Assembly (NCBI GenBank): GCA_046882085.1
Contig: JBKSNA010000033.1
Coordinates: forward strand, 1 to 43,958
Source: Clostridia bacterium
GTDB taxonomy: Bacteria > Bacillota > Clostridia > Christensenellales > UBA1242
Length of the DNA stretch: 43,958 bases
Direction of reading: 5' to 3'
The notes below the pieces were generated by a model that had not been told where the DNA came from, made no database searches, and worked only from the letters and a program-made list of their open reading frames with translations. Shown piece after piece: positions 7,501 to 38,882 of the stretch. Positions within the stretch are counted from its first letter, which is position 1. Every line of letters begins with the position of its first letter. The position numbers and the translations under genes are program-made.

Positions 7501-10500
7501 AGTATGATTAATGTAGTGTCTATAGGATCTTTAAATGATGATGGTGTGCAACCAATTTATTTTGAACTAATTATTGATGAAAATGAGTTTAAAAACGAGT
7601 CTAAATTCGATAAAATGACTACTATAGAATTGGTGTTCCAAGCAAATGAGAATGAAGATATTACGACTAAAGCAACATTTGATATATTACCGCAAAAAAT
7701 AGAGAAAATAGATATTAATAATTATACTAAGAATGGTACTGAGTGGGTACTAACAGATATGATCAAACCTGCTAGCAAAGAATCTCCAAATGGTTCATTG
7801 TTACGTATAGATATGGTTCCGATCAATGCCTATTTTGACTATCTAGAGATTAGAGATATTACAGGTAGTGAATTAATTAAATTCATCCAAGTGAAGAATG
7901 ATAAATTAGAAGCATTGGATCTAGTATTTACTGATGATGGATTAGGTATTAGATTGTATCCTCAGACCGATGATGATACTATCTATGTTCAGATGATGAT
8001 AGAGAGTACATATACTACTAAGGCGCATACGCTAGAAGTAACAGCATATGCATTAGGTAGCGATGGTACTGTATACAACTTGTATTCAGAGACTAAGCAG
8101 GTAGAAGCCAAAATGTTACCTAAGATAGAAACTACTTATGTATTGCCAAATGGAGTCAATCAAAATATCTCTAACGATGGTACTGTATACTTGGCGGCGG
8201 GTACTGATGCTGAGTTTAGAATAAATGTCACAGATGCTACTGCTCCTATGACTCATACTCTTACCTATGCAGATGGTACAGAATGCACTGATTATGAATT
8301 AGTACTTGATCAAGGTCTATTCTATATTCTCAAATATGTCGGAGATCCTATTAAGAGAGCTGAGTTGTTAGGTAAAACGATCAAACTCACACTTACTGCG
8401 GTAGCAGAAGAAGAGAATGGAGAGTATGAAGAAACAACACATACTATTAATTTCACTCTAGTAGAGTATCAAATACATAGCGTTAGTGTCAGTCCAAGCA
8501 TGAATGGTGATATTTATGGACTATTCAATAGACCGGTAGATTTATCATTCTATTTTGCACCTACAGATATTAGTTATTATGGTAGAGAGTCTAATAACAC
8601 AGAATATAGACACACAGATGATCGTACTAAGGCATCTACAGATAATGTGTTGAAATCTATATATGATATACTAGATGCTTTAAACCCAACAGGAAATGAT
8701 GTGCCAGAAAAGCAAATATCACCATCATCTAACGTGGTGGAATTCGATATGAGAGCAATAGATCAATCTAGTAATAAACAACTCACTATCAATGTGGTGA
8801 AAGAGACAAAGGACGGCGATGACATAATCTCATATGTAGGCGATGAAAAAATCATATTATCTCTATACCTAAAATTAGAAAATAATCTTTGGATTATTAA
8901 TGCAGCTCCAACTGAAGGTACGGAACCTACTATTAAGCAAGAATATGGATTGAATTTCATCGATCCTAGTAGTAAGAAAGAGCCAATCATCATCACTAGT
9001 GAAAAAGAATTCACAGAGATGGCGAGCGGACCGAATACTTACTATGCTCTAGGTAAAGATTTGGAGTTTTATGATTATGTTCCTCTCAATGTGAATGTAA
9101 CTGAGTTCGATGGTAACGGGCATAAGATTACTATTCGCGGATTCGTGGATAGCGAGAATGCAGATGTGAAGTTAGGTGTATTTAGCGAGATTCCAGCTGG
9201 AATGCTTGTCAAGAATCTAACAGTAGAATATCCTGCAGATAGTATTGGTTATGTAAGAGAGGGTAATAGCATTTATAGATACCAAGATCTAACAGATAGT
9301 ACAGCAGTGAATTATACAGCGGTTAGTTTTGGTGGAATCGCTAGCGTCAATAATGGTATCATTACTAATTGTAAAGTAATGGGTACGATAGCAGTACACG
9401 CATCAGTATTAGAGAGTCGTGGTGATGCTATGACTATTGGTGGATTGGTAGCTACTAACTCAAGTACGGGATATATCACACATTCAAGTACCGAACTCAA
9501 TATATATTCTCAGTCTAACATTGGTGGATTGGTGTATGAGAATGCGGGAACTATCGCATCGTCATATAATAAGAATGCTAAAATATATGCGTACAACAAA
9601 AATCTCTCATCAAGTATTATTGTCAAGGTGGCGGGATTTGTTGTAGATAACAGCGGTAGTGTGTCTATGTCATACATAGAGTTGGACAATGGTTATGAGA
9701 TGAGTGCTAAGGATATATCTGCGGGATTCATATTGAATAATTCGGGAGATGTATCTGATTGTTACAGCATTATCAGTAAGATCAGTTATAGTACTAATAG
9801 TAACTATTTCTCAGGATTTGTAGACACCAATAGTGGTAGAATAGAGAGATCTTATTCATACATTAATGCTGGACAAAGAGAAGACAACAATATGTTTATG
9901 TTCTTTAGAGCGGGACAGAATTCTGGTGAAATGACAGAGTGTATTGAAATAGTGAATAGTAATAACTATTCTCAAGTGGAAAAAGGATTAGACTATGTGT
10001 CATACTCTAATTCTAGATCTCAGTTTATTAATAGTGGATATTCCTTCGGCAATAATCTCAATATTAATAACGGAGCAGTGTGGACATTTGAGTTTGGATT
10101 ACCAAGATTGGTGTCTACTAAAGAGAACATTAGAGAAGAATTTGATCCAGATGGCGAAGGCGATGAATATGTCGGTAGATACATTATCTATAAAAAGATA
10201 ATAGAAGAGACCGAAGATGGTGAGAATACTAAGTATGTAGAATATCTATCACGCTATGGTACTAAAGATAATCCATTCATTGTTCATGACATTAATTCAT
10301 GGAATGAATATATGATGGACTATGCTATTGGTGGAGTGAATACTAATTACTTTAGAATAGTCGCTGATATTGACTTCTCAGGCGAGAAAGATAATCCTAA
10401 GACTAGTACATTGGTATTCGCGGGAGATATTCAAGGTAACAATATGACTCTAAGTAATATCATACTTAAGTCAAATAATACCTTGTCTAGTATAGGATTA

Positions 10501-12009
10501 TTTGCTTCTATGGAGAAGCGTGATGGTGTAGTGGATACCAAAGTGCGCAATCTAACCCTTACAGCTAGCTCGGTATGGGCTACTAAGACTCAGTCGGTGG
10601 GAATTTTAGCTGGTATTATAGAGAACTTCGATCTATACAATATTTACATTGATTCAGAGAATATCACAGTAGTCGGTGGTAATGCAGTCGGTGGATTAGC
10701 GGGAATCATTCGTGGTAATTTTGATATGGATATGATTAGTAGTAATGTCGGCGTGAATAGTACTCGAGTGGTCGCTACTAGTCAACATTATATATATAGT
10801 TCGATCAATAATCAGGGATCAAAGTCAAACAATATCTCCAATGTCTACTATGCTGGTAGTATCGCTGGTATATTAGATGGTTATGATACTTATACAGGAT
10901 TTGATATTAATGATGATAGAATTGTAACGTCGGTAGATAATAGAATCAATAACTATTATCAAGCGAGAAATATCTCAGTATCTGGATCTATGGTATTGAT
11001 CGGAGATATTGTGGGTAGTGCATTTGGTTTCGTAGGCGAGAGAGTACAGGTAGACAATGCAAATATCTCACTCACAGATGCCAGCATCAAGGGTAGCCAA
11101 TATTCATCTGGTTTAGTAGGTGAGAATAGAGGTGTTATTACTAGATATCGTGCTAAAGTCGTAGGAGATCAAAGTTACGCATTGGCTACAGGCGCTATGG
11201 GTGGATTAGTAGGATTGAATTTAGGCGGTCTAGTTCGTAATTCTGCATTTGAAGGCGATATTATCAACAATCAACGAAAAGCAGTTATTGGTGGCATAAT
11301 CGGCCGAAACATTAATGGTACACTAAATAATGTAGAAGTGTCTGGTAAACTATATGGTCATTTCGCAGGTGGAATAGTAGGAGCAGACTATACTAAGGAG
11401 ACACTTATTGGACATAGTAGTGGGTATGGTGCATTGGCGAATACTTGCAAGAGTGATACGATCATTCCTAGTTCGGTCAAGTATATAGATTCTGAACCAT
11501 TAGCTAAATTTACAGACCTGAAGATGTCTATTGATACACTCCAGAATATGCTAAAGAACATTGAGTCTTATTATAGTTATGATATAGAATCTAGCGAGAG
11601 TGGTGGTGTTGTTAGCCATACATTAAAACAAACTAGATATAGAGTCTTAGGCCTAAGTATTGCTATCTCAGACGTAGCACAGCAGATTACGGATATCGAG
11701 AAAGTTGACAATGCTATTGTATTCAATCAATCTATAGTTTCTCCTACGTCAGTTACTGAACCATATGTAGAAGTATCTGTATCTGACGGATTATTGACAA
11801 GTTCGGGAGATGTCAAAGTCCAAATCGCTCTCAATAATTCTAATCAAATAATCAAGACAATACTACCTGAAGGTGAAGGGCTATCTGATGTATATCAAGT
11901 ATATCTCACAGGCGCTATAGTAGTAACATTTGATTATTGGAATGATGAGTATAGCAATGCGGATATGTTAATATTAGGTGATTTGCAAGCAGTAGAAGAG
12001 ACTACATAG
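1513..12009 (+). CDS. giant (3498 aa) surface lipoprotein with Ig-like domains and three GLUG-repeat beta-helix modules
   Basis: Signal peptide with lipobox: MKKISSLLLILITMVSCCFLTAC. Pro-rich linker PVVSPVVPEYGEEPVEPLSDEPSP. Big_2-like segment SIVSIESAGKIRINSTGKTTLKFISV. Dozens of N-[VI]-GG-[LI]-[VI]-G repeats (GLUG motif). Confidence 0.85.
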   Translation: MKKISSLLLILITMVSCCFLTACGDKYSKLKMTFESISGETLESVNFVIDDDNEFGGIDMGVRFSDIEKKHIGEIEVRSEPEGLITVSNYSLVGSLYTFRVEANSASDNAKLIVRHMSSNKSQSIDLTIDQKSKNINVNNSKYVVDISNKESRYIDFTQILTMYPTGSTDKIQFALKDGETLPTGITPIKRDSQDLNYSGFSFAEDCGVGNVKIYPITTMHGYEDTKYENEVITIHFIDGIEEIGLVSKEAPEDVDKYIGYGSIEDPIYLLANGGDADVDLRSYMVGVQYLDGSNYVDIGTYLEYYTVNAECDDSNGESNNIMTSVVGDGVVAISATAHTNNPLEINVSIVPNGYVGEIQEISQKLYVKGVMRPNTVEMSDGSDLIDYELDSEDVRNYEIDVYNYYEDSTLGKKFTFKSITFGESPVLDGMDKIRIVISADLIDNDGNIYLNDTFTETTNASEFRLENGDTKAVGSSRYLLDFHLETDERVRFYWNGKNMVSEPIDNNSKIYIITKGLADDLTKPISDLEFVVSTINEYGKEELGYTYLSTAQSKHINVNVNRMEGVKALDVYMALGNDTKYETIKDPAMNVLKNASKIYINRNNLPVLNGVEYPYYYLYLSSDSAKGPNKNTVNNVDFELSVTADSNKNNPLILSDGVTVGNSGLVRHETISYIKLKYYNTTDVGEYTISFIQPASGFSKSINIYIYETISDAGLSDLIDLPTDDKFFKNSGLYDTYLSTPDPVVSPVVPEYGEEPVEPLSDEPSPFYDVYIINSGRAFDIEIMLTDALKASEKMGFIEGYAFEYDMVKYDNEFKPANINGIDQYFSRSHTSATENYANISFKQGTYIGGIRFVKLTAEVSVKTYTDVLTEGESLPITYDMYFFIYDEIKDTDISLDRSTDTVYARDYLGVFDKEDSQMYLDLVLDENLWHYTQIQQDDNKTKWGINSNKVIKDSITDTHAELTFNGDNDNALYQVEITASIKQFGRTFTKTCKITVRRPIITERVILNSHSYEDTNGQSYIYMKLGENNPYNVEVTNYSSYGLVTNPGVEMIVVDEMNVPSDQFVITGNTINAKLDAEPGDYYLIIFARDALKLAPSVSHGGYDHPEDFIMESVGPGGDQYKNAFFRLKISLADGSEEYPYLIHSAQDFASIEGKYNYKLMNNINLSSLHDFKGITEFNGRIFTEGSVRTIGGIRLHNDLPNIITSFGGVMENIMFEAIFDFVSYDKEGKLGIIGTNIGELRNVFVDISGQATATKDVYLGGLVGHNAVKESKVGLIAYTDKTKVGANIDVNLGGTIYFGGLVGLNDGTIQATAKSSESVEYVDFSVSLGDQGSIANVNITALSTLKAVGGIVGKNTGYITNAYVTGIIDAGDTDNVGGAIGINEYYTADTDTSIEVTLLKGPDGKELNAIGSIGRVEDYDYKVSYITSTVRISARHNVGGIIGYNNSGIITECHYQIVPTILEINNGTKAVAIIGNSNVGGLVGKTTNGLVSYSSVYSYRWDYSKLEDIDNNYDISGTTNVAGLVGLAQSENTEMLSTSNYHKLSAIIYSSANGNVNGHGLANYSRVNANEIEANYVLATFNAYFLGKGDIEINSILNQNVYLKKYDNSSNTLVNTSIDNFKSSPGKDYWGDGSKFWGDKATLNGGYIYVTRDEGGKNSLFEVAPTDVSAVVRDGTCDIKDKEGNIIKEPNYTIAENINKLLVLNYYDFNSADIDIATLNNLNNEHNTHSIQDYIRFGYAPSDLSGVRLYIESKDPSIVSIESAGKIRINSTGKTTLKFISVLNPAITTEIDIIVITPIGDYEVSDNLNDPNMSSLSIAKGKSKLLYNYTSGEIDGYSYVTNANPYLNISVATPNDVTLPANKEISDYILIIGIDNSRLSNTLPFTIKVLDTFENAKFEFTVKPYTLIKYNEVDYYIYSSIYTEENELDTFDLYIGEGGTGISLNYSGALLYPADRTIITAYLETDLQLDQSKYQDAKDKLLQSALIGNIDVSSMINVVSIGSLNDDGVQPIYFELIIDENEFKNESKFDKMTTIELVFQANENEDITTKATFDILPQKIEKIDINNYTKNGTEWVLTDMIKPASKESPNGSLLRIDMVPINAYFDYLEIRDITGSELIKFIQVKNDKLEALDLVFTDDGLGIRLYPQTDDDTIYVQMMIESTYTTKAHTLEVTAYALGSDGTVYNLYSETKQVEAKMLPKIETTYVLPNGVNQNISNDGTVYLAAGTDAEFRINVTDATAPMTHTLTYADGTECTDYELVLDQGLFYILKYVGDPIKRAELLGKTIKLTLTAVAEEENGEYEETTHTINFTLVEYQIHSVSVSPSMNGDIYGLFNRPVDLSFYFAPTDISYYGRESNNTEYRHTDDRTKASTDNVLKSIYDILDALNPTGNDVPEKQISPSSNVVEFDMRAIDQSSNKQLTINVVKETKDGDDIISYVGDEKIILSLYLKLENNLWIINAAPTEGTEPTIKQEYGLNFIDPSSKKEPIIITSEKEFTEMASGPNTYYALGKDLEFYDYVPLNVNVTEFDGNGHKITIRGFVDSENADVKLGVFSEIPAGMLVKNLTVEYPADSIGYVREGNSIYRYQDLTDSTAVNYTAVSFGGIASVNNGIITNCKVMGTIAVHASVLESRGDAMTIGGLVATNSSTGYITHSSTELNIYSQSNIGGLVYENAGTIASSYNKNAKIYAYNKNLSSSIIVKVAGFVVDNSGSVSMSYIELDNGYEMSAKDISAGFILNNSGDVSDCYSIISKISYSTNSNYFSGFVDTNSGRIERSYSYINAGQREDNNMFMFFRAGQNSGEMTECIEIVNSNNYSQVEKGLDYVSYSNSRSQFINSGYSFGNNLNINNGAVWTFEFGLPRLVSTKENIREEFDPDGEGDEYVGRYIIYKKIIEETEDGENTKYVEYLSRYGTKDNPFIVHDINSWNEYMMDYAIGGVNTNYFRIVADIDFSGEKDNPKTSTLVFAGDIQGNNMTLSNIILKSNNTLSSIGLFASMEKRDGVVDTKVRNLTLTASSVWATKTQSVGILAGIIENFDLYNIYIDSENITVVGGNAVGGLAGIIRGNFDMDMISSNVGVNSTRVVATSQHYIYSSINNQGSKSNNISNVYYAGSIAGILDGYDTYTGFDINDDRIVTSVDNRINNYYQARNISVSGSMVLIGDIVGSAFGFVGERVQVDNANISLTDASIKGSQYSSGLVGENRGVITRYRAKVVGDQSYALATGAMGGLVGLNLGGLVRNSAFEGDIINNQRKAVIGGIIGRNINGTLNNVEVSGKLYGHFAGGIVGADYTKETLIGHSSGYGALANTCKSDTIIPSSVKYIDSEPLAKFTDLKMSIDTLQNMLKNIESYYSYDIESSESGGVVSHTLKQTRYRVLGLSIAISDVAQQITDIEKVDNAIVFNQSIVSPTSVTEPYVEVSVSDGLLTSSGDVKVQIALNNSNQIIKTILPEGEGLSDVYQVYLTGAIVVTFDYWNDEYSNADMLILGDLQAVEETT

Positions 12010-17562: not shown

Positions 17563-19809
17563 ATGATTAAGACTGTTTTTAATAAACTTTCACTGGCATT
17601 ATATTTTATCGTAAGTGCACTTATTGTTGAAGTGATTACTTTTTATTTATTGGATTTTGGTTTTATGCCAGAGTATTTTTGGTACAATTTGGCTATTATT
17701 AGCATTATCTCGTTATTGATATATGCTATTCCTAATTATACAGCTCAGTACATTACATATTTAGTAGTGATTTTGATACAGATTATACTGACTTATGTTA
17801 ATTATTCTTTATTAGTTATATATGGAGATTTGTTCTCTATAGATATGCTGATGTTGGGTGGTGAGGCCATGGCTGCCATTACTACTAATTTTATATATTT
17901 TGCAGTAATTGGTCAATTAGTAGCAGTGTTTTTGGCTATTGCTATTATCGGATACTTTATACTAAAATCTGCGAATAGAGATAAAGTGAAAGTAAAACAA
18001 CATTTTACTATTTATAATATCGTTATTATTTTAGTGGTGCAATTATTCTCAATCGGCTGTTGTGTAGACAGTAGAAATAATATTAATTCTTCTGCAAGTA
18101 ATGATCCTATGGCGTTCGTTCATAGCGATGCATTCTTGATGAATACTGCTTATATCAAAGAGAATAGTTATCAGAAATTCGGAACATATGGTTATTTTAC
18201 CAATCTCATCATGAGTAATACTAACAATTACAATTCAGCACATAAATCTAAAACTATTGAGTATTTTAATTCAGGGAATATTTACGATGGTACTTATAAT
18301 GTGAATGGTGAACAGATTTCTAATGGAATGTTCGGTAGAGCTAATGGTCAAAATGTAGTCGTGATTATGATGGAATCTCTTGAGTGGTTTGCATTTGGAG
18401 ATGGTAAGTATGATTACTCGCTTGAGAACCTATCGGACGAATTAACACCTAATATTTATAACTTAATACATAGTGATTCTTCTATGATTTCGTCTAATTT
18501 TTATTCAAAATCTAAGACAAATTATTCAGAAGCATTTGCTGTATTAGGTTTATACCCTGTAGGTCAATCTTTGTCAGATGTGTTAGGATTTGGTTATGAT
18601 AATGATACTAATGCATTCGGATATTCTATGCCGAGTGTTATGAGAGATGAAGGATATACCACTTCTTATATTCATTCTAACGAATTAGGTTTTTATCGTC
18701 GTAGAAATACACATAAGTATCTAGGATTTGATAATGTTTTAGGAAAAGATACTGTAAAAGATGGCAATGGAAATAAAGTGTATAAAGGTAGCGATCTATG
18801 GTGGGATCATTGGGACGCAGAAGGTGATTTCGCTAGAAATGCAATGTATACATTAGTACCAGAGAATTATAAAGAGAAGAATTTCTATTCATTCTATCTC
18901 AATGTGTCATCTCATGGACCGTATGTGTATGATAAGAACGATGGAGATTGCTTGCGTTATCGTGATTATGTCATGTATGGCGAAGATGATTGTGAGTGGA
19001 ATAGTGAAAAATCTATTTGGGAACTAAAAGATACCTCTTCTTGTACTTATGATAAGAAAAATAAGATCTGGCGAAAAAATAATAATTCAGATCTTACTTA
19101 TACAGAATGGTATCAAAATATAGTAGATAAATTTGGAGAGAGCGATCCAGTGTTGTGCAACGAAATGATCTTCTATCAGTGTGGAGTAATGGGATTAGAT
19201 GAAGCGATAGGTGCTATAATTAAGCAATTAAAAGATTATAAATATGACGATGGTACTAGCGTATATGATAATACCACTTTATTGTTGTACTCAGATCATT
19301 ATGCATACTATAATGGATTGACTAATAGATACAAGGGATTTGATTCTAGCGATGTAACAAGTGTGGAGTTAAATACTGTTCCTATGATTATTCATAGTAG
19401 TGCGATCAAGGAATATGCTGATGAGTATTACCCTAATAGGGCTAAAGAATATTTAATAAATGATAGATTTAGTTCTGCGTATGATATTATACCTACATTA
19501 TTAGATATTTTAGGTATTAAGTACAATGAAAATCTATATTTAGGACATTCATTGTTTAGACCTGCTGATAGTTATTATACTATTGGAGAAGAGAATCGAG
19601 ATATGACAGTATATTACTCTAATACAGGCGGAATATACTCAGAACACATGTATTCATACAATCTTCGAGATTTCTATACTACTAGTGATGAATTGGGTGC
19701 AGATACTCAAGACATCTTCATGAACGAAGTATCAAAAGTATTGGTTAAATTAAACTATTTGGGAATACTAAATAATTATCATTTATACAATCAACTCACT
19801 AATGTATAA
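17563..19809 (+). CDS. LtaS-family (sulfatase-fold) phosphoglycerol/lipoteichoic-acid transferase
   Basis: Five N-terminal TM helices, then an extracellular sulfatase domain starting NVVVIMMESLEWFAF. Start moved to ATG 17563, because the track's extension covers the promoter. Confidence 0.75.
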   Translation: MIKTVFNKLSLALYFIVSALIVEVITFYLLDFGFMPEYFWYNLAIISIISLLIYAIPNYTAQYITYLVVILIQIILTYVNYSLLVIYGDLFSIDMLMLGGEAMAAITTNFIYFAVIGQLVAVFLAIAIIGYFILKSANRDKVKVKQHFTIYNIVIILVVQLFSIGCCVDSRNNINSSASNDPMAFVHSDAFLMNTAYIKENSYQKFGTYGYFTNLIMSNTNNYNSAHKSKTIEYFNSGNIYDGTYNVNGEQISNGMFGRANGQNVVVIMMESLEWFAFGDGKYDYSLENLSDELTPNIYNLIHSDSSMISSNFYSKSKTNYSEAFAVLGLYPVGQSLSDVLGFGYDNDTNAFGYSMPSVMRDEGYTTSYIHSNELGFYRRRNTHKYLGFDNVLGKDTVKDGNGNKVYKGSDLWWDHWDAEGDFARNAMYTLVPENYKEKNFYSFYLNVSSHGPYVYDKNDGDCLRYRDYVMYGEDDCEWNSEKSIWELKDTSSCTYDKKNKIWRKNNNSDLTYTEWYQNIVDKFGESDPVLCNEMIFYQCGVMGLDEAIGAIIKQLKDYKYDDGTSVYDNTTLLLYSDHYAYYNGLTNRYKGFDSSDVTSVELNTVPMIIHSSAIKEYADEYYPNRAKEYLINDRFSSAYDIIPTLLDILGIKYNENLYLGHSLFRPADSYYTIGEENRDMTVYYSNTGGIYSEHMYSYNLRDFYTTSDELGADTQDIFMNEVSKVLVKLNYLGILNNYHLYNQLTNV

Positions 19810-19816
19810 TATGTAT

Positions 19817-19845
19817 AAGGTAGTCTTAATTGACTACCTTTTTTA
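19817..19845 (+). terminator. rho-independent terminator
   Basis: AAGGTAGTC / GACTACCTT stem with a T-run. Confidence 0.75.
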
Positions 19846-20112
19846 CTACCAACACCAATGTCTAAATAATGGGCAACAACAACGATTTCTAGTAGTTTCT
19901 TTTCGGTCTTCTTGACGATCTGTATTCTTGTTACAGGTACAGTCTTTTTTGTGTGGACAACTGTGCTTTTCTTCACATTTATCATCTTCTTTTTCTTCAG
20001 TGTAGTAGCTAGGATAACAGCAATATTCTGTTACACGAATACAGCATTTTTCCTTTTCGCGAGATGGATATTTCTTATCATCGCAGTTGTCGTCATATCT
20101 ATTGTAATACAT
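19846..20112 (-). CDS. small highly charged cysteine-rich protein (88 aa, 13 Cys)
   Basis: RBS AAAGGAG 7 nt before ATG (CAT 20110-20112). Sequence MYYNRYDDNCDDKKYPSREKEKCCIRVTEYCCYPSYY...NRCCCPLFRHWCW. No family recognised. Confidence 0.5.
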   Translation of the reverse strand: MYYNRYDDNCDDKKYPSREKEKCCIRVTEYCCYPSYYTEEKEDDKCEEKHSCPHKKDCTCNKNTDRQEDRKETTRNRCCCPLFRHWCW

Positions 20113-20176
20113 TTTCTTCTCCTTTTTGAACACTAGGTGTTCTATGACATAGTATTCTAAGAAATGAATAGATGTG

Positions 20177-20211
20177 AAAAAAAACAATACGCGTTGGTAT
20201 TGTTTTTATTT
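20177..20211. terminator. bidirectional hairpin terminator
   Basis: A8, then ACAATAC/GTATTGT stem, then TTTTATTTT. It ends the minus-strand gene 20252-21421. Confidence 0.6.
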
Positions 20212-20251
20212 TGCGAATATAACAAAGCGAGATTTATGTTGCTTAATTAAT

Positions 20252-21421
20252 TTATTTAGTGTTAGGTTGCTTGTCCATAGTAGCGACAGTGAAGGCTCCA
20301 TTGGCTACTTTGTCTAATATTTTATTAATATCTGTGATAGTTAGTTTGAATTGGTATGTAAATTCTTTATTACCATCATAGAAATAGAATGTCTTATCGA
20401 AATCATGGAAATATCTACCATGACAAAGGGCATTCCTAAAGTGTCGAACATTTTCTTTAGTGAGACCTGCTATACAACCATTAAGAGTATTATAGAGTTC
20501 GTCATTAGATTGAGATGATGCCAATGTGAATAATAAATTCGATATTAGCGAGAAATAAAAATTCAGAGATCCTAATTTTGTTTTGAGTTTAGGGAATTTT
20601 TCTACTATTTGATCCCATGTACTATTTGATCCTATTGCCATTAATATCTTGAGAGTATCTACTTTTTCATTGAAATTTTCGTTGGCGCAGTCAGGGAATC
20701 TAATGGCGACATCTAGATCAGCATCGCTCTCAAATTGCTTTCGATTTTCTTTCACGTAATAGAAATAATTATAAGCGCGAGATATTTGATTATTATCTAA
20801 ATCTCTTAGAGTATTATCATCATTGCATAGTCGCATATTGTCTCTAATATCGCTTCGGTATTCAATTTGACGGATTGGTGTAATATTCATTTTGCCATGA
20901 GGAGTGCTTCGTAGGACATTAGATGTTAGGATCTCGATTAATTCAATCAATTCTCTGCCATTAAGTTTGACAATATAGTCTGAGCCTTTCACTTTGCCGA
21001 GATTTAGTTCAAATGAAGTTAGGTCAAATACGAAATTTGGATTAGTTTCGCTATTATGAACAATGCTTTCTCGGATACGCTTGTATAGTTCTTTGTTATT
21101 GAAAGGAAAATTTTCACCAGTTTTTGTCATTTCTTTTTTTATTAAGGTAAATAATGCTTTTTGTTTTACTAGCCCTTCGTCAAATCGAGTAGGATCAGAT
21201 GCCCACAACTGATTGATTAGAGTGAAGAGTTCTTTAGTAACATTGATACATACTTCTTGAAGGCAAGTGTCGGTAACAAGTTTAAGATGATCCCTAGTAT
21301 ATTCACGCATTATTTTTCGTAGTTCTCTATCTGGCTTTTCTACCATTTTTCTTGCTGCTGCTAGAAATATATTGTGTAAAACTAAACTTTCGGTTAATGT
21401 TCTTTGATAATTATTATTCAT
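20252..21421 (-). CDS. orphan protein with two Rx4H (HEPN-type) motifs
   Basis: RESIVH at nt 21056-21073 and RNALCH at nt 20420-20437. The two halves show a similar motif-strand-helix pattern. Start set at ATG 21421, because the track's TTG 21439 lies inside the promoter. Confidence 0.7.
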   Translation of the reverse strand: MNNNYQRTLTESLVLHNIFLAAARKMVEKPDRELRKIMREYTRDHLKLVTDTCLQEVCINVTKELFTLINQLWASDPTRFDEGLVKQKALFTLIKKEMTKTGENFPFNNKELYKRIRESIVHNSETNPNFVFDLTSFELNLGKVKGSDYIVKLNGRELIELIEILTSNVLRSTPHGKMNITPIRQIEYRSDIRDNMRLCNDDNTLRDLDNNQISRAYNYFYYVKENRKQFESDADLDVAIRFPDCANENFNEKVDTLKILMAIGSNSTWDQIVEKFPKLKTKLGSLNFYFSLISNLLFTLASSQSNDELYNTLNGCIAGLTKENVRHFRNALCHGRYFHDFDKTFYFYDGNKEFTYQFKLTITDINKILDKVANGAFTVATMDKQPNTK

Positions 21422-21427
21422 ATCTAA

Positions 21428-21456
21428 ATAATAGCACAAAACATATCGATAATCAA
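21428..21456 (-). promoter_or_regulatory. promoter placed for a leaderless transcript of the two-HEPN-motif gene
   Basis: Minus strand: TTGATT (21456-21451), 17-nt spacer ending in TGc, TATTAT (21433-21428), then 6 nt to ATG 21421. Confidence 0.5.
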
Positions 21457-21481
21457 TATTAAATACGAAATTTTCTAAAAC

Positions 21482-21510
21482 AAAAAAGACTTAGGTTTGA
21501 TCCTAAGTCT
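21482..21510 (-). terminator. rho-independent terminator downstream of the displaced tRNA-Asn 3' fragment
   Basis: AGACTTAGG/CCTAAGTCT stem, followed by T6 on the minus strand. Confidence 0.7.
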
Positions 21511-21512
21511 AT

Positions 21513-21534
21513 TTGGCGCCCCGAGCGGGTTCCG
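21513..21534 (-). repeat. displaced copy of the tRNA-Asn 3' end (att-like direct repeat)
   Basis: TTGGCGCCCCGAG at 21513-21525 is identical to 22405-22417 (acceptor 3' strand plus CCA of tRNA-Asn). Partial similarity continues for about 8 more nt and then is lost. Confidence 0.7.
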
Positions 21535-21695
21535 TTTTTTATCAGCCTCACCCCGTGTCAATCATTATTTTAAGTGAAATTCACTCACAAATTTCCCACT
21601 TTCAAACTCATTAAAACGTTAATTTTTGATATTTTGGAAATTGTTGCAAATTTGTTAAATCAAATCTTAAACATTTAATCTTTATTGTTTTTTGT

Positions 21696-22172
21696 TTAAA
21701 AATTATTTATAATGGTTACTTCTTCATCGGTAGACGGAACTTCAAATAACTTTTTATTTTTATCAAAGTTTTCCAAATGAATTTTAACCCATTCAGGAGG
21801 TCTGTCTGCAATTATTCTTTGCTTAAGAATTTCATCTGGAACATACAAATAGTAGTGTTTATAGTTTGCATTACATTCTTGTGCTACTTGTTTTGCAAAA
21901 TCTCTATCTTTTTTAATCCAAAATCCCATATTCAATATAACATCGATACCATTATTTAAATATTCTTTTGTTTTCGTCCAAAGTTGAGTTACTGTTGCAT
22001 CAAAACATTTATTCCAATCTGTCATATATTCATCTTTATTATATAGTTTAGTTACCCATTCATCAGGATTTAAGTGTATAGCACCCCTTTCTTTAGAAAA
22101 CTTTTTTGAAAAAGTGCTTTTCCCAGCTCCTATAAATCCTTGAATAAGATATAAAGTTGCTTTTTTGTTCAT
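21696..22172 (-). CDS. P-loop kinase, AAA_33 / polynucleotide-kinase-like family
   Basis: Walker A in LIQGFIGAGKST. 158 aa. RBS AAGGAGA. Extended -10 TGaTATAAT upstream. Confidence 0.7.
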   Translation of the reverse strand: MNKKATLYLIQGFIGAGKSTFSKKFSKERGAIHLNPDEWVTKLYNKDEYMTDWNKCFDATVTQLWTKTKEYLNNGIDVILNMGFWIKKDRDFAKQVAQECNANYKHYYLYVPDEILKQRIIADRPPEWVKIHLENFDKNKKLFEVPSTDEEVTIINNF

Positions 22173-22370
22173 ATTTTCTCCTTAATAATTTTTATTATTA
22201 TATCACAAAAACTATAAACATCAAATCTCTTGAAATTAATTTGTTTAATTGTTCCATTGTATAAAGCTTTCTTTTATCTGTCATATTGTACTCTTTTATT
22301 ATTTAAAGGTAGCACAAATATTATAGAAAATCAATTCCTGCATTAAAAAATTCTCACTTTTTGTGAAAAT

Positions 22371-22400
22371 GAAAAAGGACTTTAGATTAATCTAAAGTCC
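22371..22400 (-). terminator. rho-independent terminator of tRNA-Asn
   Basis: GGACTTTAGA/TCTAAAGTCC stem, followed by a T-run on the minus strand. Confidence 0.75.
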
Positions 22401-22405
22401 TTAAT

Positions 22406-22480
22406 TGGCGCCCCGAGTAGGGCTCGAACCTACAACCTATCGGTTAACAGCCGAGTGCTCCACCATTGAGCTATCGAGGC
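22406..22480 (-). tRNA. tRNA-Asn (GUU), CCA encoded
   Basis: Reverse complement GCCTCGATAGCTCAATGGTGGAGCACTCGGCTGTTAACCGATAGGTTGTAGGTTCGAGCCCTACTCGGGGCGCCA. It folds by hand into a 75-nt cloverleaf with anticodon loop CTGTTAA. Confidence 0.9.
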
Positions 22481-22594
22481 ATATGCTGAAAACAAGTCTA
22501 TTATACTATATGATTTTTGCTTTGTCAACGCTTTTTTATTAAATTTATGAAAAATTTTTAAGATTTATCTAGAATAGAAATTTATTCAAAACTA

Positions 22595-22623
22595 TTGAGT
22601 TTTTAATAATTATATGCTATAAT
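22595..22623 (+). promoter_or_regulatory. promoter of the 1856-aa protein gene
   Basis: TTGAGT 22595-22600, 17-nt spacer, TATAAT 22618-22623. RBS GAAGGAGG before ATG 22646. Confidence 0.6.
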
Positions 22624-22645
22624 TATTTAAATTGAAGGAGGCTGT

Positions 22646-25600
22646 ATGGCTACAAGAATTGCAATAGAACCTACAAAGATAACAAATATGTCATTTAGAA
22701 GATATGACAAGACTCAAAATATTTCTTTTGAGGATTTGTTTGTACAAAAAACTGATGGGGAATTGATTTATCTAAACGATCTCCAGACTGGTGATACTGC
22801 AGACACTAAGATTAAAACTATTGATGAATTTTTTAAGAATTTTAATAAGTTGCAATATGGTGGCACTAAGCTTGTTGACATGGGGATTAAAATAGAAGAT
22901 TTATTTTATCGTACTATGGTGCATACAGATATTTCATCTAATCATACTAGTATATCCAGCTTGTCATTAACTAATGGAGCTAGTCGTACCTATAGTTTGG
23001 CACATAAAAGTGAATTAGCACCTGGCGAGAGAAGATTTGGCAATGATGTTGTATTCATTGGTAGACTCAGAGGTTATGCTCAAGATACTATTATGGAAGC
23101 TGGCGATATTTATTATATCCACCCATTGACTAAGGCGAGAATTAATTTAATCGAATTAGAGAATGTATTGAAGCCTAGTTTTAAGAATTTCACTCATGCG
23201 GTCTATATGTATGAAGACAAAGATGGTGTAAGTAGAGAAATAGAAGCCATTGATCTACGCAATGCATATACTTGTAAGTTGACTACCTATGAAGCTAAAA
23301 AAGAAAATGGAATGATTGAAACTCATACTTTTGATAAAGATGGTAATGATATTGTAGTGGGTACTAGATTTACTAATCCTAACTTTGTAGAGAAGAAAGC
23401 AATAGCAGACGATGATAAAGGTACTACGCTTATCCAAAATAAATTATTCAAGCGTAGCGCTAATGGTGAATTTGTTGGTGTGAGAGTAAAAGGTCAAGAA
23501 CATTTGATAAAAGTGAACATAACCGACTTATACTTTAAAAATGGTAATCAGATTATATCTGAGGGAACAGAGTTGTCCGCGGAAGAATTTGATACGATCA
23601 AAGGCTTAGAACTTCAAGTAAAATCAGAAGATGGTAAAATGCTCGACATCGAGCCTCTCACAATAGACAATGAAAGATATACTACCGAGAGAGTGTTGGC
23701 ATTATCACATAGTGCGGAAGATGTCATGGCGGATAATGCATATTTGAAGTTACAAAATGGTGAGATGTTCCGCGAATCAGCTGAGAATCTTCAGCCTAAG
23801 TCATATAATATCATTGCTGACACAGCAGATGCAGATGCATATTTGGTAAGATTAACGAATGGACAATTCAGAATAATAGATAAGGCATATTTTGAGAAAC
23901 AAAGATTAGCTAATAATGTATCTTTCAATCTAGATGGCGCAGTTGTTCGTATTAGTAGCGTGCATAAGTTGGGACGTACCACTGCTGCTAACGCGGAATT
24001 ATATCAAACATCGAATGCATTCGGATCTAAAGTACATGCTTGTAGAGTGATTAAGAAAGTTAGAGAATTAGGCGAAATGGCCGAATCATTTGATGCTGAG
24101 CAAGAGCAAACTGAGGGTAGAGAAGATTTCTTAGCAAGTTATAAGGCTGGCAATTATGTCTTAGATAAAGTTGAAATTTTAGATAAAGATAGCAATGTAA
24201 AACTTCAAGATGTCGTAACAAATAAAGAAGAAAAAGGTGAAAGATATATCTATACCGATACTTTTGAGACAGAAGACAATAGTCAAAAGACAGGATATTA
24301 TGCGACTTTAGATAACAAACCAGTAGAAATACAGGTAAAAGATGGCAAAATTAGTTATGCCAAGGGTGGCCCTAAGTATAATATCGGTAAAGCGATGGCA
24401 AGAGATTATAAAGTGTTAGGAACAGCGGCACTTTATTCATTGGGAATTTTCTCTACAGGTGGTCTAGCATTAGCAATAGCTGTTCCTGGTCTAGTAATCG
24501 CGGGTGGTGCCGCGATGGCTTTGGCTGCTCCTGGTATATTGATAGGGGAAACTGCTCGTGGTATAGTGAATCGTATCTCTAATGCTGTAAAGAAAAGTGC
24601 ATGGCATACAAATGTGGATCTAAAGAAATTAGATAAGAATCAAGATATTAACAACCAAACTAAGAAAGAAGTCGAAGTTGGTTTAAAACATATTAGAACT
24701 CAAACTGAACAAAAATTAGCAGAGATAGAGAATAATGCTACCTTATCAGATGATGCTAAGCAAGAAGCTAAAGAAGAATTAATGCAAAAATTAAATCTAG
24801 AGTGTGGGCTTCTTCAACAAAAAATTGCGACTATGTCTGGCTCTACTATTGAAGGCAGTGGCTTCACTATTACAGATGGTAAAGGTAATGTATCTTCATA
24901 TAATGCATATCAATGTCTAATGTTCCAAGATGCATTTAATAAGAAAGTGGATCAAAGAAAAGAAATCGATAAAAGTATCAAAGGTCTACATGAGCGTCTA
25001 ACTAAGGGGAAAACTTTACGTCGTGGACAATCTAAAACTTTAGATAAAATGATCGCTAAGTATTTCCCAGAAGATGAATTTGCTAATGACTTAGACAAAG
25101 TCGAGGCATTACAAAATAGAAGTATAGCTATCAATACTGAACTAGAGGGAATGCAGCAAAGCTTCACTAGTGGAAGATATCAAGCACCTCCAGATGCTAG
25201 ACACGCTGAGCTTTTAGATAGATCTAGAAATATGCAGGCGTATTTGATCGCTAAGATACAAGGTGTATATTTAGAAGATGGTATCAAAGTTGATGACTTT
25301 ATGTCTAGCACATTAGATCAAGCTACTCTTCAACATCATATGGATATTATTGAAGGAATCAAAAATGATATCGGTGAATTTAATTTAGAAGATGTATTAG
25401 CAATGACTCCAGCGAATGCGGAAGAATCTTCTAGAAAAGAAGCAGAAATAGAAACCGGTGCAGGTTTAGGCGCTAACACAGATCTTGAAACTAAGATAAA
25501 ACCAATAATAAATTTAGATGACGAAGAAAAGAAAGAAGATGAAAGTTCGAGTATTCTACAGATAGAAGACATAGAAGATATTAAGTCTGTATTTATGGGA

Positions 25601-28216
25601 TTATCTCCAAGTTTCAATGCTATTAAGGATAAAATGGATCCTATATGGGACGAGACATTATCTGAAATGAATGCTTTGAACGTTACTCCGGAGACTATTG
25701 ATTCAGCGATTACATACCTTAACAATCAAGATAATTTATCTGAAGATAATAGTGATTTATTAGCCAAATTACAACTTGTTCGTTTTAAATACGATGATTT
25801 TGTTAGTGATAGTACAAAATTTGTTGATGCTATTGAGAAGCAAGAAAGAATAATCAATCAGTTGAATGAAAATTCAAATATTGATCCTACTCAAATTGAA
25901 ACTGCATACAGCGAACTAGTTAGTGTGTGTGAAGAATTGGCAGAGAAACATGGTGTAGAGATTAAAATTGACGTTGCAAAGATAGAAATTTTATCAACCG
26001 TAAGACAAGCAGAAGATGCTGCAGATGCTATGAGAGCACTTACTGAGCCATCAGATGATAATTTATCTTTAGTTGACGCATTCAATATGATGAAATCTGG
26101 CGCTATAGATGAGAGTTTCATCGATATGTATCCTCATCATATAAGAGACATTGGTGAGAGATGTTCTAGATATAAATATTTCGAGAAATTGAAAGAAAAA
26201 GGATCTATTAATATTACAATCAACGGTGAAAAAATCACATTAACTCGAGATGAAGCTGAACAAATGCAAGATAATTTTGCTAAGATTAATTCTGTACTTA
26301 AAGGCGAAAAAGAAGAAAAAACTTATACTGAGTTAGATATTGCATTGATTAGAACTTTGATTGCTAAAATGAATGACTTGGAGAATATTCACAAAAAGTT
26401 CGCAGGACCAGATGAAGAACTATTAGGTAATGAAGAAGATTTGGCTACAGATCTTAGAGACTTCTACGATGCGAATCATGCAATATTTGATAAAGCGTTA
26501 TCTAGTGAGAGTTTGTCAGATTTGCTAAAAGAAGATATCAAGCAAGCAATCGAATATTACAATCATTATGGTGATTATTATCCAATAGGTTATAAACCTG
26601 AGAACAATGATGAAACTAAACCTCAAAATGAAGATATAGATTCAAATAATAATCTGTCTATCAACCCTAACAATGTTAACAAAAATGATGGCAACAACGT
26701 TGTACCTAATTTAGTCGTAAAGCCTGAGGATACACTAGATGATCAAGTAGACGATGATACAAATAGTCATAATGATAGACAGCCAAGTGTATATACTAAC
26801 AATACACATGATGAAAACGACAATAGTGTTGATCCTAATAAAGTAAATGAGATTCTAGAAGAATCAGATGAAGCGAATAAAGATAAAAATGATAAAGATG
26901 ATTCAACTGACCTTAATGCGAATGAAAAAATCAGTAGATTATCAAAAATTAAAGCTAAATTATCAAGTGTATTAGAAAGCATAAAGAACAAGAAAGAAGA
27001 ACACAAAGCTCAAAAACAAGAAAAGAAAAATAGCAAGAAGGATAAAGAAAATCTTTTAGACGAAGAATCAAAACTTAAACTAGGTGAGAAAATTCATCAA
27101 TTAGGATCAAAGTTAAAAAATGCAGGGTCAAAAACAATATCTGCAGTCAAAACTGCTGGAGTAACTGCAGGCAATGCTATTAAGAATGCTGGAATAACTG
27201 CAGGTAAAGGAATCAAGACTGCAGGTGGTGCAGTAGTTGGCGCGGTAAAAGATGCAGTATCAAAATTAAAAGAAAAACTTAAAAAAGAACCAGAATATAG
27301 TTTTGATGAACGTGTGGCGATATTTAAAGATATGGTAATATTACCTTTTGATCCTAAAAAGTTTAGTGAAAAGTATAAAGACAAAAAAGGCTTGATAGAA
27401 TATGCAAAAAATAATATTAAGTTAACTGAATTAAAAGGATTTAAAACTCTAAAGATTACTAAATCTGGTGAAAAAGAATCTATATCGTTTACTGCAGAGG
27501 CTGTAAATGTTTGTATCGATGCATTGCATCAGTTAGATGAATATGAGAAATCTCTGAAAGAAGAAAAGAAGAAAAAGAAAGGTTTTGATAAATCAAAAAA
27601 AGAGACTTCTCGTACTGATAAGAAAGGCAATAAGAAGGATAAAAAGAGACAACAACAAGATGCTGAGAGATCTAGCAGTTCTAATGATGCAAATGATAAT
27701 AATAATACTGACTCAGAAATGGAGATTGTATTTGATCCTAATAAAATATTTAGCGGAGAATTTGGTGATATAGATCTTTCTAAGCCGGTATATGATCCGA
27801 AAATTCGTGAATACATGCAAAGTCTTGGTCTTAATCCAGATAATCCATGGGAAAGTGTTTCTTCAAATGGTGTTAATATACCAAATCCTTTTGCAGAAGC
27901 TGGACAAAATCAAACAAGCTCTATAATTGGAAATGGTGAAATTTATAGTGGTCTTTTAGATTGGATAAATGAAGATCAAGCTAATAGAGGTCCACTGCTA
28001 GCGCTTAATAAGGAAGAATTAGAGAAAAAGGGTCTAGATGCTAATAAAATAGAAGAAATAATAAACTTTAAGCAGTCTGTTAAAGAATTATTAGAAGCAA
28101 AAGAAAAGGCTCAAGCGTCAGCTGGAAAGCAAAGTAAGAAAATATTAGATGATTTAGATAATCAAAATATCAATACAAGTACAAACAATAATAAACCTGA
28201 TGATTTGGGTTTATAG
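22646..28216 (+). CDS. giant (1856 aa) protein with a central TM hairpin, long coiled-coil/low-complexity C-terminal region
   Basis: A globular region of about 590 aa, then two Gly/Ala-rich hydrophobic helices (nt 24413-24546). After that come charged helical sequence, N/D/K-rich tracts and a K-x-AG-x-TAG repeat block (nt 27113-27262). No family recognised. Confidence 0.8.
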   Translation: MATRIAIEPTKITNMSFRRYDKTQNISFEDLFVQKTDGELIYLNDLQTGDTADTKIKTIDEFFKNFNKLQYGGTKLVDMGIKIEDLFYRTMVHTDISSNHTSISSLSLTNGASRTYSLAHKSELAPGERRFGNDVVFIGRLRGYAQDTIMEAGDIYYIHPLTKARINLIELENVLKPSFKNFTHAVYMYEDKDGVSREIEAIDLRNAYTCKLTTYEAKKENGMIETHTFDKDGNDIVVGTRFTNPNFVEKKAIADDDKGTTLIQNKLFKRSANGEFVGVRVKGQEHLIKVNITDLYFKNGNQIISEGTELSAEEFDTIKGLELQVKSEDGKMLDIEPLTIDNERYTTERVLALSHSAEDVMADNAYLKLQNGEMFRESAENLQPKSYNIIADTADADAYLVRLTNGQFRIIDKAYFEKQRLANNVSFNLDGAVVRISSVHKLGRTTAANAELYQTSNAFGSKVHACRVIKKVRELGEMAESFDAEQEQTEGREDFLASYKAGNYVLDKVEILDKDSNVKLQDVVTNKEEKGERYIYTDTFETEDNSQKTGYYATLDNKPVEIQVKDGKISYAKGGPKYNIGKAMARDYKVLGTAALYSLGIFSTGGLALAIAVPGLVIAGGAAMALAAPGILIGETARGIVNRISNAVKKSAWHTNVDLKKLDKNQDINNQTKKEVEVGLKHIRTQTEQKLAEIENNATLSDDAKQEAKEELMQKLNLECGLLQQKIATMSGSTIEGSGFTITDGKGNVSSYNAYQCLMFQDAFNKKVDQRKEIDKSIKGLHERLTKGKTLRRGQSKTLDKMIAKYFPEDEFANDLDKVEALQNRSIAINTELEGMQQSFTSGRYQAPPDARHAELLDRSRNMQAYLIAKIQGVYLEDGIKVDDFMSSTLDQATLQHHMDIIEGIKNDIGEFNLEDVLAMTPANAEESSRKEAEIETGAGLGANTDLETKIKPIINLDDEEKKEDESSSILQIEDIEDIKSVFMGLSPSFNAIKDKMDPIWDETLSEMNALNVTPETIDSAITYLNNQDNLSEDNSDLLAKLQLVRFKYDDFVSDSTKFVDAIEKQERIINQLNENSNIDPTQIETAYSELVSVCEELAEKHGVEIKIDVAKIEILSTVRQAEDAADAMRALTEPSDDNLSLVDAFNMMKSGAIDESFIDMYPHHIRDIGERCSRYKYFEKLKEKGSINITINGEKITLTRDEAEQMQDNFAKINSVLKGEKEEKTYTELDIALIRTLIAKMNDLENIHKKFAGPDEELLGNEEDLATDLRDFYDANHAIFDKALSSESLSDLLKEDIKQAIEYYNHYGDYYPIGYKPENNDETKPQNEDIDSNNNLSINPNNVNKNDGNNVVPNLVVKPEDTLDDQVDDDTNSHNDRQPSVYTNNTHDENDNSVDPNKVNEILEESDEANKDKNDKDDSTDLNANEKISRLSKIKAKLSSVLESIKNKKEEHKAQKQEKKNSKKDKENLLDEESKLKLGEKIHQLGSKLKNAGSKTISAVKTAGVTAGNAIKNAGITAGKGIKTAGGAVVGAVKDAVSKLKEKLKKEPEYSFDERVAIFKDMVILPFDPKKFSEKYKDKKGLIEYAKNNIKLTELKGFKTLKITKSGEKESISFTAEAVNVCIDALHQLDEYEKSLKEEKKKKKGFDKSKKETSRTDKKGNKKDKKRQQQDAERSSSSNDANDNNNTDSEMEIVFDPNKIFSGEFGDIDLSKPVYDPKIREYMQSLGLNPDNPWESVSSNGVNIPNPFAEAGQNQTSSIIGNGEIYSGLLDWINEDQANRGPLLALNKEELEKKGLDANKIEEIINFKQSVKELLEAKEKAQASAGKQSKKILDDLDNQNINTSTNNNKPDDLGL

Positions 28217-37121: not shown

Positions 37122-37240
37122 AAATATTAAATATTGTCATATTTAAGACGATTTTTAAAATCCTTGTGTTAATATGCAAACAAAAAAGGTTGGAGAGTAA
37201 TTTCTTCAACCTTGCAATTTTTAAGGAGGTATGATATAAT

Positions 37241-38307: not shown

Positions 38308-38310
38308 AAC

Positions 38311-38547
38311 ATGAAATATTTAGATTTGGTAGAATTGATAAAAGAAAAACCAGCATATAAAAAAGCTGGGGTTAAAGTTGGCGACTTCGGGGCTGTCATG
38401 AGCAAACAACCAATTAATGGAAAATGGCAAGTTGTATTTTCTGAATTTTATACAGGAAAGGACACCGCTGATATTATGGTTGCCGAAGAAGATTTACAAG
38501 TGCATGAATTTGTTCCTAAAGACAAATATCCAAAGAAAAAACAATAA
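38311..38547 (+). CDS. single DUF4926-like module protein
   Basis: LDLVELIKEKPAYKKAGVKVGDFGAVM...WQVVFSEF...VAEEDLQV. Starts 3 nt after the upstream stop. Confidence 0.55.
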   Translation: MKYLDLVELIKEKPAYKKAGVKVGDFGAVMSKQPINGKWQVVFSEFYTGKDTADIMVAEEDLQVHEFVPKDKYPKKKQ

Positions 38548-38552
38548 AAAGG

Positions 38553-38705: not shown

Positions 38706-38740
38706 AAATGTTTTTTTTGTGGAAAAGATGTGGGAAATTT

Positions 38741-38791: not shown

Positions 38792-38800
38792 TTGAGATTT

Positions 38801-38846: not shown

Positions 38847-38882
38847 TATTGAATTTTACCCAAGCAAGACTCGAACTCAAAG

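Follow-up and report, generated by a model that had tools for sequence, protein, structure and literature searches.

A chromosomal, partner-less protein family with two conserved HEPN motifs in Clostridia: a candidate single-chain ribonuclease

HEPN ribonucleases (RNases) normally build one active site from two subunits. What, then, would a single protein of 389 amino acids (aa) that carries two HEPN-type motifs be doing alone in a bacterial chromosome? Such a protein is encoded on the minus strand, at positions 20252 to 21421, of contig JBKSNA010000033.1 from a Clostridia bacterium (assembly GCA_046882085.1), whose whole stretch of 43,958 nucleotides is called the window below. The initial annotation had described a self-contained gene with two Rx4H motifs in an internally duplicated layout and had read it as a stand-alone RNase toxin or abortive-infection effector, possibly assisted by a neighboring kinase. 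Our analysis confirms the description, with two conserved motifs, a duplicated layout and a self-contained gene, and supports the interpretation in part: the motifs, the duplication and the gene's own promoter held, the kinase partnership did not, and the abortive-infection role was weakened. We propose, with a probability of roughly 0.6, that the gene encodes a single-chain tandem-HEPN RNase with a composite site, chromosomal and partner-less, leaning to a latent toxin.

Motifs, halves and the HEPN assignment

The coding sequence and its parts are as follows, in window coordinates.

20252..21421, minus strand: tandem-HEPN coding sequence, called as an open reading frame (ORF) of 389 aa, stop codon counted in
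20912..21421, minus strand: N-terminal HEPN module, residues ~1-170, pEK499_p136-like by the PF18736 matches of distant relatives
21056..21073, minus strand: HEPN motif 1, R117-E-S-I-V-H122 followed by N123, at the end of helix 109-121
20687..20911, minus strand: middle region, residues ~171-245, with the conserved L-D209-x-N-Q212 (conservation in 89 homologues)
20297..20686, minus strand: C-terminal HEPN module, residues ~246-375, from the hhalign match to the N-terminal half, the profile matches of C-terminal halves and an AlphaFold2 (AF2) domain model
20420..20437, minus strand: HEPN motif 2, R329-N-A-L-C-H334 followed by G335-R-Y-F, with Y348-D-G350 further downstream, at the end of helix 322-333
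~20700-20975 (profile residues ~150-240): borderline histidine-kinase-like match to a PDB sequence

RESIVH (R117-H122, nucleotides 21073-21056) and RNALCH (R329-H334, nucleotides 20437-20420) lie at the coordinates first given for them. Two Rx4H motifs in a single sequence are only mildly unusual by themselves, as shuffling the query produced at least two Rx4H in 5.4% of trials and at least two R[NDEQH]xxxH in 0.44%. We regard the conservation of the motifs, and not their count in one sequence, as the decisive evidence.

The protein had been called an orphan, which holds insofar as it belongs to no named family but fails insofar as relatives exist, namely 43 close homologues and 81 cluster representatives. 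A word-indexed search returned the 43 homologues, at 35-90% identity and all ~370-400 aa long, from metagenomes and metagenome-assembled genomes (MAGs). An exhaustive search with a hidden Markov model matched 81 proteins among 1.84 billion representatives of 50%-identity clusters, of which ~50 were full-length distant relatives of 379-458 aa; with 81 representatives among 1.84 billion proteins, the family is narrow. Conservation was read from an alignment of 89 full-length sequences at 15-90% identity to the query, made of 39 close homologues and 50 distant relatives (15-40% identity).

In the close set, R117, H122, N123, H334, G335 and Y348-D-G350 are invariant and R329 is nearly so. Both motifs occur at equivalent positions in all 50 distant relatives, where the sole invariant columns are the R and H of motif 1 and the R, N and H of motif 2. 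Being the sole invariant columns across such distant relatives, the motif R and H residues are probably catalytic and not a product of chance. Throughout the 89 sequences both motifs are kept, as the initial annotation had asked of homologues: motif 1 with N123 is invariant, as is H334, while R329, N330 and G335 are 99% conserved, as are Y348 and D349 (G350, 88%). D209 and Q212 of the middle region are conserved in 96-97% of the same sequences. The residue that follows the motif R is always polar (E/D/N/Q/H or N). In the superfamily survey, a polar residue after the R of Rx4-6H is a HEPN signature, and the motif sits at the end of helix 3 (PMC3710099); an Rx4-6H with such a residue is conserved across the 89 homologues.

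A significant match to an established HEPN family is held by the family and not by the query alone. The query did not match PF18736 (pEK499_p136) at E up to 1, and the best close homologue reached E 0.0047. The distant relatives P0051, P0052 and P0065 exceed the PF18736 gathering score over their N-terminal halves (31.5, 31.4 and 28.1 bits against 26.6), so that the profile search first suggested against HEPN families succeeded through these relatives. Overall, 15 of the 50 distant relatives match HEPN-clan models, with pEK499_p136 in 12 (at E up to 0.01), RiboL-PSP-HEPN in 2 and MAE_28990-HEPN in 1, and any non-HEPN Pfam family is limited to 3 of the 50 at most. PADLOC models gave weak matches among the 50, nearly all to HEPN models (CARF_HEPN, RTasHEPN, Cas13c), with one chance match each to TniQ_IB and SspE. 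For the isolated C-terminal halves, the matches, all below cut-off, fell on Abi_2, RiboL-PSP-HEPN and pEK499_p136 as the only families of the same clan, the remainder being scattered and unrelated. Moreover, the 166-aa HEPN nuclease of Escherichia coli pEK499 aligns (E 1.6e-4) to the N-terminal half of the family profile, and the register is kept from the motif across the hairpin to the final helix. Searches of PDB sequences with the query and both family profiles gave chance-level matches, e.g., doublecortin. The histidine-kinase-like match listed above (E 0.025) would make the middle region an ATPase segment with N-box and G1-box-like motifs; we treated it as probably due to chance because N168 is not conserved in the distant relatives.

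The internally duplicated layout was borne out by profile comparison. BLASTP found no match between the N-terminal and C-terminal halves, and hhalign of the halves gave a nonsignificant E of 0.26 with the close homologues alone; with the 89-sequence alignment it reached a probability of 84% and E 8e-6, the halves aligning in register over motif, hairpin and helix. At the level of these profiles the two halves are homologous and appear as diverged copies of one HEPN module. Short proteins holding the C-terminal half only, returned by the exhaustive search, were considered as single-domain ancestors and set aside: they look like fragments of full-length members and are therefore uninformative on free-standing single-domain ancestors.

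The full-length AF2 model has a mean predicted local distance difference test score (pLDDT) of 84.8 and a predicted template modeling score (pTM) of 0.86, the latter implying a defined packing of the two halves in the prediction; the C-terminal domain modeled separately has a pLDDT of 85.2. Motifs 1 and 2 lie at the C-terminal ends of helices 109-121 and 322-333. Each is followed by three strands and a helix (strands 130-153 and helix 155-167; strands 337-361 and helix 362-373), in agreement with the aromatic strand plus Leu/Ile-rich helix first noticed after each motif. The middle region (~171-245) is modeled as mixed strands and helices. A four-helix-bundle HEPN fold is predicted on the basis of the sequence profiles and of this secondary-structure layout.

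A solitary gene and its surroundings

The gene is flanked by the following features.

21428..21456, minus strand: promoter TTGATT-17-TATTAT, sigma-70-like, the -10 box ending 6 nt before the ATG
21487..21510, minus strand: upstream hairpin terminator, which insulates the gene from the cassette slot
20177..20210, minus strand: downstream AT-rich hairpin followed by a T run (inverted repeat), a probable terminator
21514..21530, minus strand: displaced copy of the tRNA-Asn 3' end (14/17 bases match), marking the end of the cassette slot
21696..22172, minus strand: AAA_33/polynucleotide kinase (PNK)-like kinase, cassette cargo (AAA_33 2e-17; polynucleotide-kinase PHROG 8.6e-8)
22406..22480, minus strand: intact tRNA-Asn(GTT), from a tRNA search

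The ATG at 21421 is the start common to the homologues in the alignment of the close set; an alternative TTG start at 21439 was rejected, as it overlaps the -10 box. The promoter, TTGATT-17-TATTAT, stands 6 nt from the ATG as had been noted, and the gene is indeed a self-contained, monocistronic unit. As to the terminators claimed on both sides, the upstream hairpin was confirmed, and the downstream one is seen solely as an AT-rich inverted repeat; similar hairpins lie 3' of the gene in most homologous loci.

A -10 box this close to the ATG predicts a leaderless mRNA. Of 17 family loci, 13 have a spacing of exactly 6 nt between the -10 hexamer and the start codon (the window, L001, L006, L008, L010, L011, L012, L017, L019, L020, L023, L028 and L029), a spacing that reaches the distant relatives L017, L019, L020 and L023. 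The exceptions are L004, L014-16 and L024, which are Shine-Dalgarno led, and L022, which is unclear. Clear Shine-Dalgarno sequences precede most of the 19 other starts that were checked in the window. Leaderless expression thus looks like a conserved, gene-specific trait, which could keep basal translation low, allow translation under stress, or spare the transcript cleavage in a 5' untranslated region (UTR).

Twelve distinct neighborhoods were surveyed; a scan of metagenome contigs yielded just two fragmentary loci. The closest genomes are MAGs named Candidatus Onthoplasma (Christensenellales, NCBI taxonomy) and "uncultured Clostridia". The contexts of the gene are listed here.

Window, L001, L010: sulfatase-type membrane protein, small Cys-rich ORF, HEPN gene, cassette slot, tRNA-Asn
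L006, L008, L012, L029: MgsA, rubrerythrin, cytidylate kinase and enolase on one side; RecX and ACPS on the other
L004: AspRS, L13, S9 and tRNA-Arg upstream; Tex, DprA and TopA downstream
L017: RNase HII, L19, PolA
L019, L020: TyrRS, glycolysis genes
L022: RNase T-like gene, ArgRS
L024: DnaE, WhiA and MurB upstream; UvrC and CtsR downstream
L028: giant ORF, class II aminoacyl-tRNA synthetase
L023 (1674-8245): HEPN gene (P0127) just downstream of type I HsdR, DUF4160 and a 323-aa reverse transcriptase (RVT_1)

No gene recurs beside the HEPN gene in all 12 contexts, and L023 is the sole defense-like neighborhood among them. No CRISPR-like spaced repeat array was found in the window, as had been stated for it, or in 29 loci. 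An Rfam scan of 19700-22700 at E up to 1 found neither the abiF motif (RF03085) nor any other family near the gene, and no non-coding motif is common to the subgroups.

Separately, three unrelated contexts place a tRNA gene directly beside the HEPN gene: the window tRNA-Asn upstream, the L004 tRNA-Arg (9540-9616) 100 nt upstream, and the L014 tRNA-Glu (7268-7342, also in L015 and L016) ~100 nt downstream and convergent. This adjacency could reflect chance, proximity to an integration hotspot, or a hint of the substrate.

Between the gene and the tRNA-Asn lies a cassette slot. The displaced tRNA 3' fragment at 21514-21530, noticed from the start, is present with 14 of 17 bases where 0 such matches are expected by chance. 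A ~100-nt stretch downstream of the tRNA-Asn, holding the tRNA 3' end, the hairpin terminator and a TTGATT...TTTGTGCTA promoter, repeats ~880-890 bp on, just before the HEPN gene, and only the kinase gene stands between the two copies. The HEPN gene is not island cargo: it stands on the original chromosomal flank, past the last of the tRNA copies. Strains with a HEPN protein at 89-90% identity have a Ham1p-like gene (L001, L003) or a peptidase S51 gene (L010) at this slot; the kinase is exchangeable cassette cargo because sister strains carry these other genes. In L011, a 49% relative, the slot holds two small ORFs in tandem, each followed by a ~110-nt conserved element, a tRNA 3' end copy and a hairpin.

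The slot itself is integron-like, with small single genes that differ by strain (window 21487-22480; L001 151-1246; L010 ~1-1384; L011 1-1382). Its ~110-nt element reads …TTTAATGxGTTTGAAAGTG…GGATAAAAAACGGAACC and repeats with the tRNA-Asn 3' copy, the hairpin terminator and the promoter. No integrase was found inside the cassettes, and Rfam gave no match on the slot. The ~110-nt element was considered as a non-coding RNA (ncRNA) partner lying upstream of the HEPN gene and rejected, as it belongs to the repeated cassette boundary; two matches of it in viral contigs lie inside a coding region and were put down to chance.

Proposed function and its alternatives

The protein is most likely a metal-independent endoribonuclease, by analogy with HEPN RNases generally, whose cleavage needs no metal (PMC3710099). 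In the mechanism that we propose, two diverged pEK499_p136-type HEPN modules, each made of helices, a helix ending in R-polar-x3-H, a beta-meander and a final helix, would be joined by the ~75-residue middle region and would pack together like the subunits of a HEPN homodimer, so that, as in Cas13 (PMC12165695), a pseudo-dimer with a single site would arise within one molecule. R117 and H122 together with R329, N330 and H334 would form this one composite, metal-independent RNA-cleaving site, and cleavage would leave 2',3'-cyclic phosphate and 5'-OH ends. By function, the protein may compare with the nuclease lobe of Cas13 or with a covalently linked HEPN homodimer. The biological role is the least certain part of the proposal. 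We lean toward a latent, self-contained toxin-type RNase, which phage infection or stress would release, over a dedicated RNA-processing enzyme, because nearly all characterized prokaryotic HEPN RNases act in conflict systems and single-gene abortive infection (Abi) systems exist. The nearest named relatives of the family are conflict-system HEPN families.

Several results weigh against this proposal. As to the RNase itself, the query has no meaningful match in the Pfam, NCBIfam, PADLOC and PHROG models. Foldseek, first suggested as a check for the HEPN fold, retrieved no HEPN structure: the full model had no significant match in the PDB (best E 0.7) or BFVD (best E 0.18), and the C-terminal domain model had none in the PDB (best E 3.2). 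The proposal of a single site also supposes that the two motifs face each other, a geometry that is putative. As to a toxin or defense role, 11 of the 12 contexts are housekeeping with no defense island, and four subgroups with only ~40-46% identity to the query share the order enolase/HEPN gene/RecX. Across the 12 contexts, no antitoxin gene (e.g., MNT) or repeat RNA adjoins the gene, nor did we find an adjacent partner of the kind that defines HEPN toxin-antitoxin modules of types II, III and VII; no sensor or ncRNA partner was found either. By tblastn, the query had no match in 50,697 phage records and the distant relative P0051 had none in 72,556 plasmid records. The dN/dS ratio (nonsynonymous to synonymous substitutions) against sister strains is 0.06-0.08, indicating strong purifying selection, and, for a HEPN protein at 90% identity, the neighboring sulfatase is at 93%. 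Taken with the synteny, the absence of partners and the absence of phage and plasmid matches, these values argue for a stable, vertically inherited chromosomal gene of Candidatus Onthoplasma and related uncultured gut Clostridia. The abortive-infection role initially inferred is weakened by the 11 housekeeping neighborhoods, with one of the 12 left beside a type I restriction subunit and a reverse transcriptase.

Several of these results feed the most serious alternative, namely that the protein is a housekeeping endonuclease of RNA processing or decay in reduced-genome Clostridia, a counterpart of Las1 in its logic, acting on a tRNA, rRNA or mRNA-class substrate. Besides its solitary position among core genes in 11 of 12 contexts and the enolase/HEPN gene/RecX arrangement in four subgroups, this possibility can draw on the tRNA-Asn/HEPN gene adjacency, kept down to 49% identity, on the tRNA genes beside the gene in three contexts, on a dN/dS of ~0.07, on the lack of any antitoxin or immunity gene or conserved ncRNA, and on the absence of the query from phages and of P0051 from plasmids. 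However, no housekeeping HEPN RNase is known to us from bacteria, the family is both rare and narrow, its nearest named relatives belong to conflict systems, in small genomes almost any neighbor is housekeeping, and one relative (L023) does stand beside restriction and reverse-transcriptase genes. We therefore hold it possible and rank it below the latent toxin. Somewhat more doubtful is the idea that a fusion of two related defense-type HEPN genes, giving a chain of 389-450 aa with an intramolecular RNase site, smaller than any Cas13an and representing a free-living case of the step postulated before Cas13, was not taken up by a CRISPR array but fixed as a vertical, leaderless and partner-less gene for a lineage-specific RNA-processing or quality-control nuclease, which would be the first bacterial housekeeping HEPN RNase.

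The remaining explanations are much less probable. A small ncRNA, as antitoxin or guide, might gate the composite site of a tandem-HEPN nuclease of the AbiF/Cas13an type. A two-module chain of 389 aa would fit the pre-CRISPR Cas13 ancestor that has been proposed, with two AbiD/F-, Swt1- or pEK499-like HEPN modules in one chain (PMC12165695), one C-terminal half matches Abi_2 at 19.2 bits, and Onthoplasma strains have the ~110-nt conserved element upstream. This is improbable in view of the lack of a CRISPR-like array in the window or the 29 loci, of the abiF motif or another Rfam family beside the gene, and of a non-coding motif shared by the subgroups; the ~110-nt element is a repeated cassette boundary, stands before other genes as well in L011 and does not occur in loci outside Onthoplasma, the similarity to phiC2 AbiF is nonsignificant (E 0.25 and 0.029 against the family profiles), and a leaderless mRNA leaves no 5' UTR for an RNA acting in cis. 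The idea that the neighboring kinase heals or modulates the 5'-OH ends, so that both genes form a module, fared worse. The kinase is indeed PNK-like (AAA_33 2e-17, PHROG polynucleotide kinase 8.6e-8), and Las1-Grc3, reportedly a eukaryotic HEPN nuclease paired with a polynucleotide kinase, offers a precedent for a nuclease-kinase pair. Yet the kinase sits inside a cassette bounded by copies of the tRNA-Asn 3' end, strains with an 89-90% identical HEPN protein carry the Ham1p-like or peptidase S51 gene in its place, and a terminator and a separate promoter stand between it and the HEPN gene. The neighborhood survey, undertaken as first suggested for co-occurrence with the kinase, found no recurrent kinase in other contexts, the cytidylate kinase near enolase being a housekeeping gene two genes away. 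A partnership of the two is thus very unlikely. It is about as improbable that the protein is a noncatalytic helical structural or binding protein whose R and H are kept for reasons other than cleavage. The Foldseek result, the lack of a direct family match for the query and the existence of inactive HEPN dyads such as Swt1 speak for it; on the other side, inactive HEPN domains typically lose the motif (PMC3710099), and in this family no positions are better conserved, over the range of 15-90% identity, than the two motifs and the polar residue after R.

Returning to the tandem-HEPN RNase that we favor, its closest likeness is pEK499_p136 (PF18736), the best and sole recurrent profile match of the family, with which it shares the module layout of a helix ending in R-polar-x3-H, a hairpin and a helix. 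The type protein is, however, a single domain of 166 aa that would need to dimerize, whereas the present chain fuses two modules and has a conserved middle region; the Pfam family is reported to neighbor restriction-modification, ART/Macro and Pgl genes, whereas the present gene is solitary among housekeeping genes, and the query stays below the Pfam gathering score. With Cas13 it shares two HEPN motifs per polypeptide, which imply an intramolecular composite RNase site, and the analogy first drawn to a Cas13 logic without CRISPR fits at the level of architecture. It is small like the compact Cas13an, 389 aa against 429-577 aa (PMC12165695). In contrast to Cas13, none of its loci contains a CRISPR array, and neither cas genes nor a candidate guide RNA came to light. 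Only one of 50 relatives gave a PADLOC match to Cas13c, a weak one, and any homology link to Cas13 would be putative. AbiD/AbiF proteins (Abi_2, PF07751) are likewise stand-alone HEPN RNase genes of Bacillota with a similar motif context, RNxxxH then G/Y-R-aromatic, and the C-terminal half that scores 19.2 bits on Abi_2 remains below the cut-off of 25.6. AbiF differs in having one HEPN motif, in acting as a homodimer and in being preceded by an ncRNA with abiF motifs on prophages or plasmids (PMC12373285), whereas here we find a tandem chain, no abiF RNA, a predicted leaderless mRNA and a chromosomal gene. The likeness to Las1-Grc3 lies in a HEPN nuclease whose cleavage depends on two motifs, and in the P-loop kinase next door in the window; the kinase neighbor is not conserved here, and Las1 is a homodimer of single HEPN domains.

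Single-chain HEPN dyads are already known among the families compared (Swt1, which is inactive, some Csx1 proteins and Cas13), so that the principle has precedents. The novelty lies in a partner-less ~390-aa bacterial HEPN dyad family fixed in the chromosome. A single chain of 389 aa with both motifs strictly conserved, and with no guide array, antitoxin or sensor gene found alongside, is near the smallest self-sufficient HEPN nuclease imaginable. If active, it could reveal how a composite site is restrained inside one small protein, could serve as a compact RNase scaffold, and could inform the "fusion of two HEPN genes" step in the origins of Cas13. Its housekeeping surroundings and conserved leaderless expression raise the question of whether bacterial HEPN nucleases also operate outside conflict systems. 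Pfam, NCBIfam, PADLOC and PHROGs have no entry for the family, which merits a model of its own.

Other features of the window

Just downstream of the HEPN gene, an ORF at 19846-20112 (minus strand) encodes an 88-aa Cys-rich, highly charged protein, …CCIRVTEYCCYPSYY…CCCPLFRHWCW. A strong Shine-Dalgarno sequence precedes it; the ORF is also conserved in L001, L002 and L010, and it matches no Pfam family.

At 35988-43958, directly after LeuRS, lies a probable integrated defense island, ~15 kb from the HEPN gene and unlinked to it. It comprises a tyrosine integrase (35988-37121), DUF6883, YpsA/SLOG and GIY-YIG/DUF4357 proteins, and a type I HsdM methylase (41347-43818).

Two giant ORFs lie on the plus strand. 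The one at 1513-12009 encodes 3498 aa, and its 3470-aa counterpart in L001 is without a precomputed Pfam match; the one at 22646-28216 encodes 1856 aa, rich in Lys, Glu, Asp and Asn, with a hydrophobic segment. Both are possibly surface proteins.

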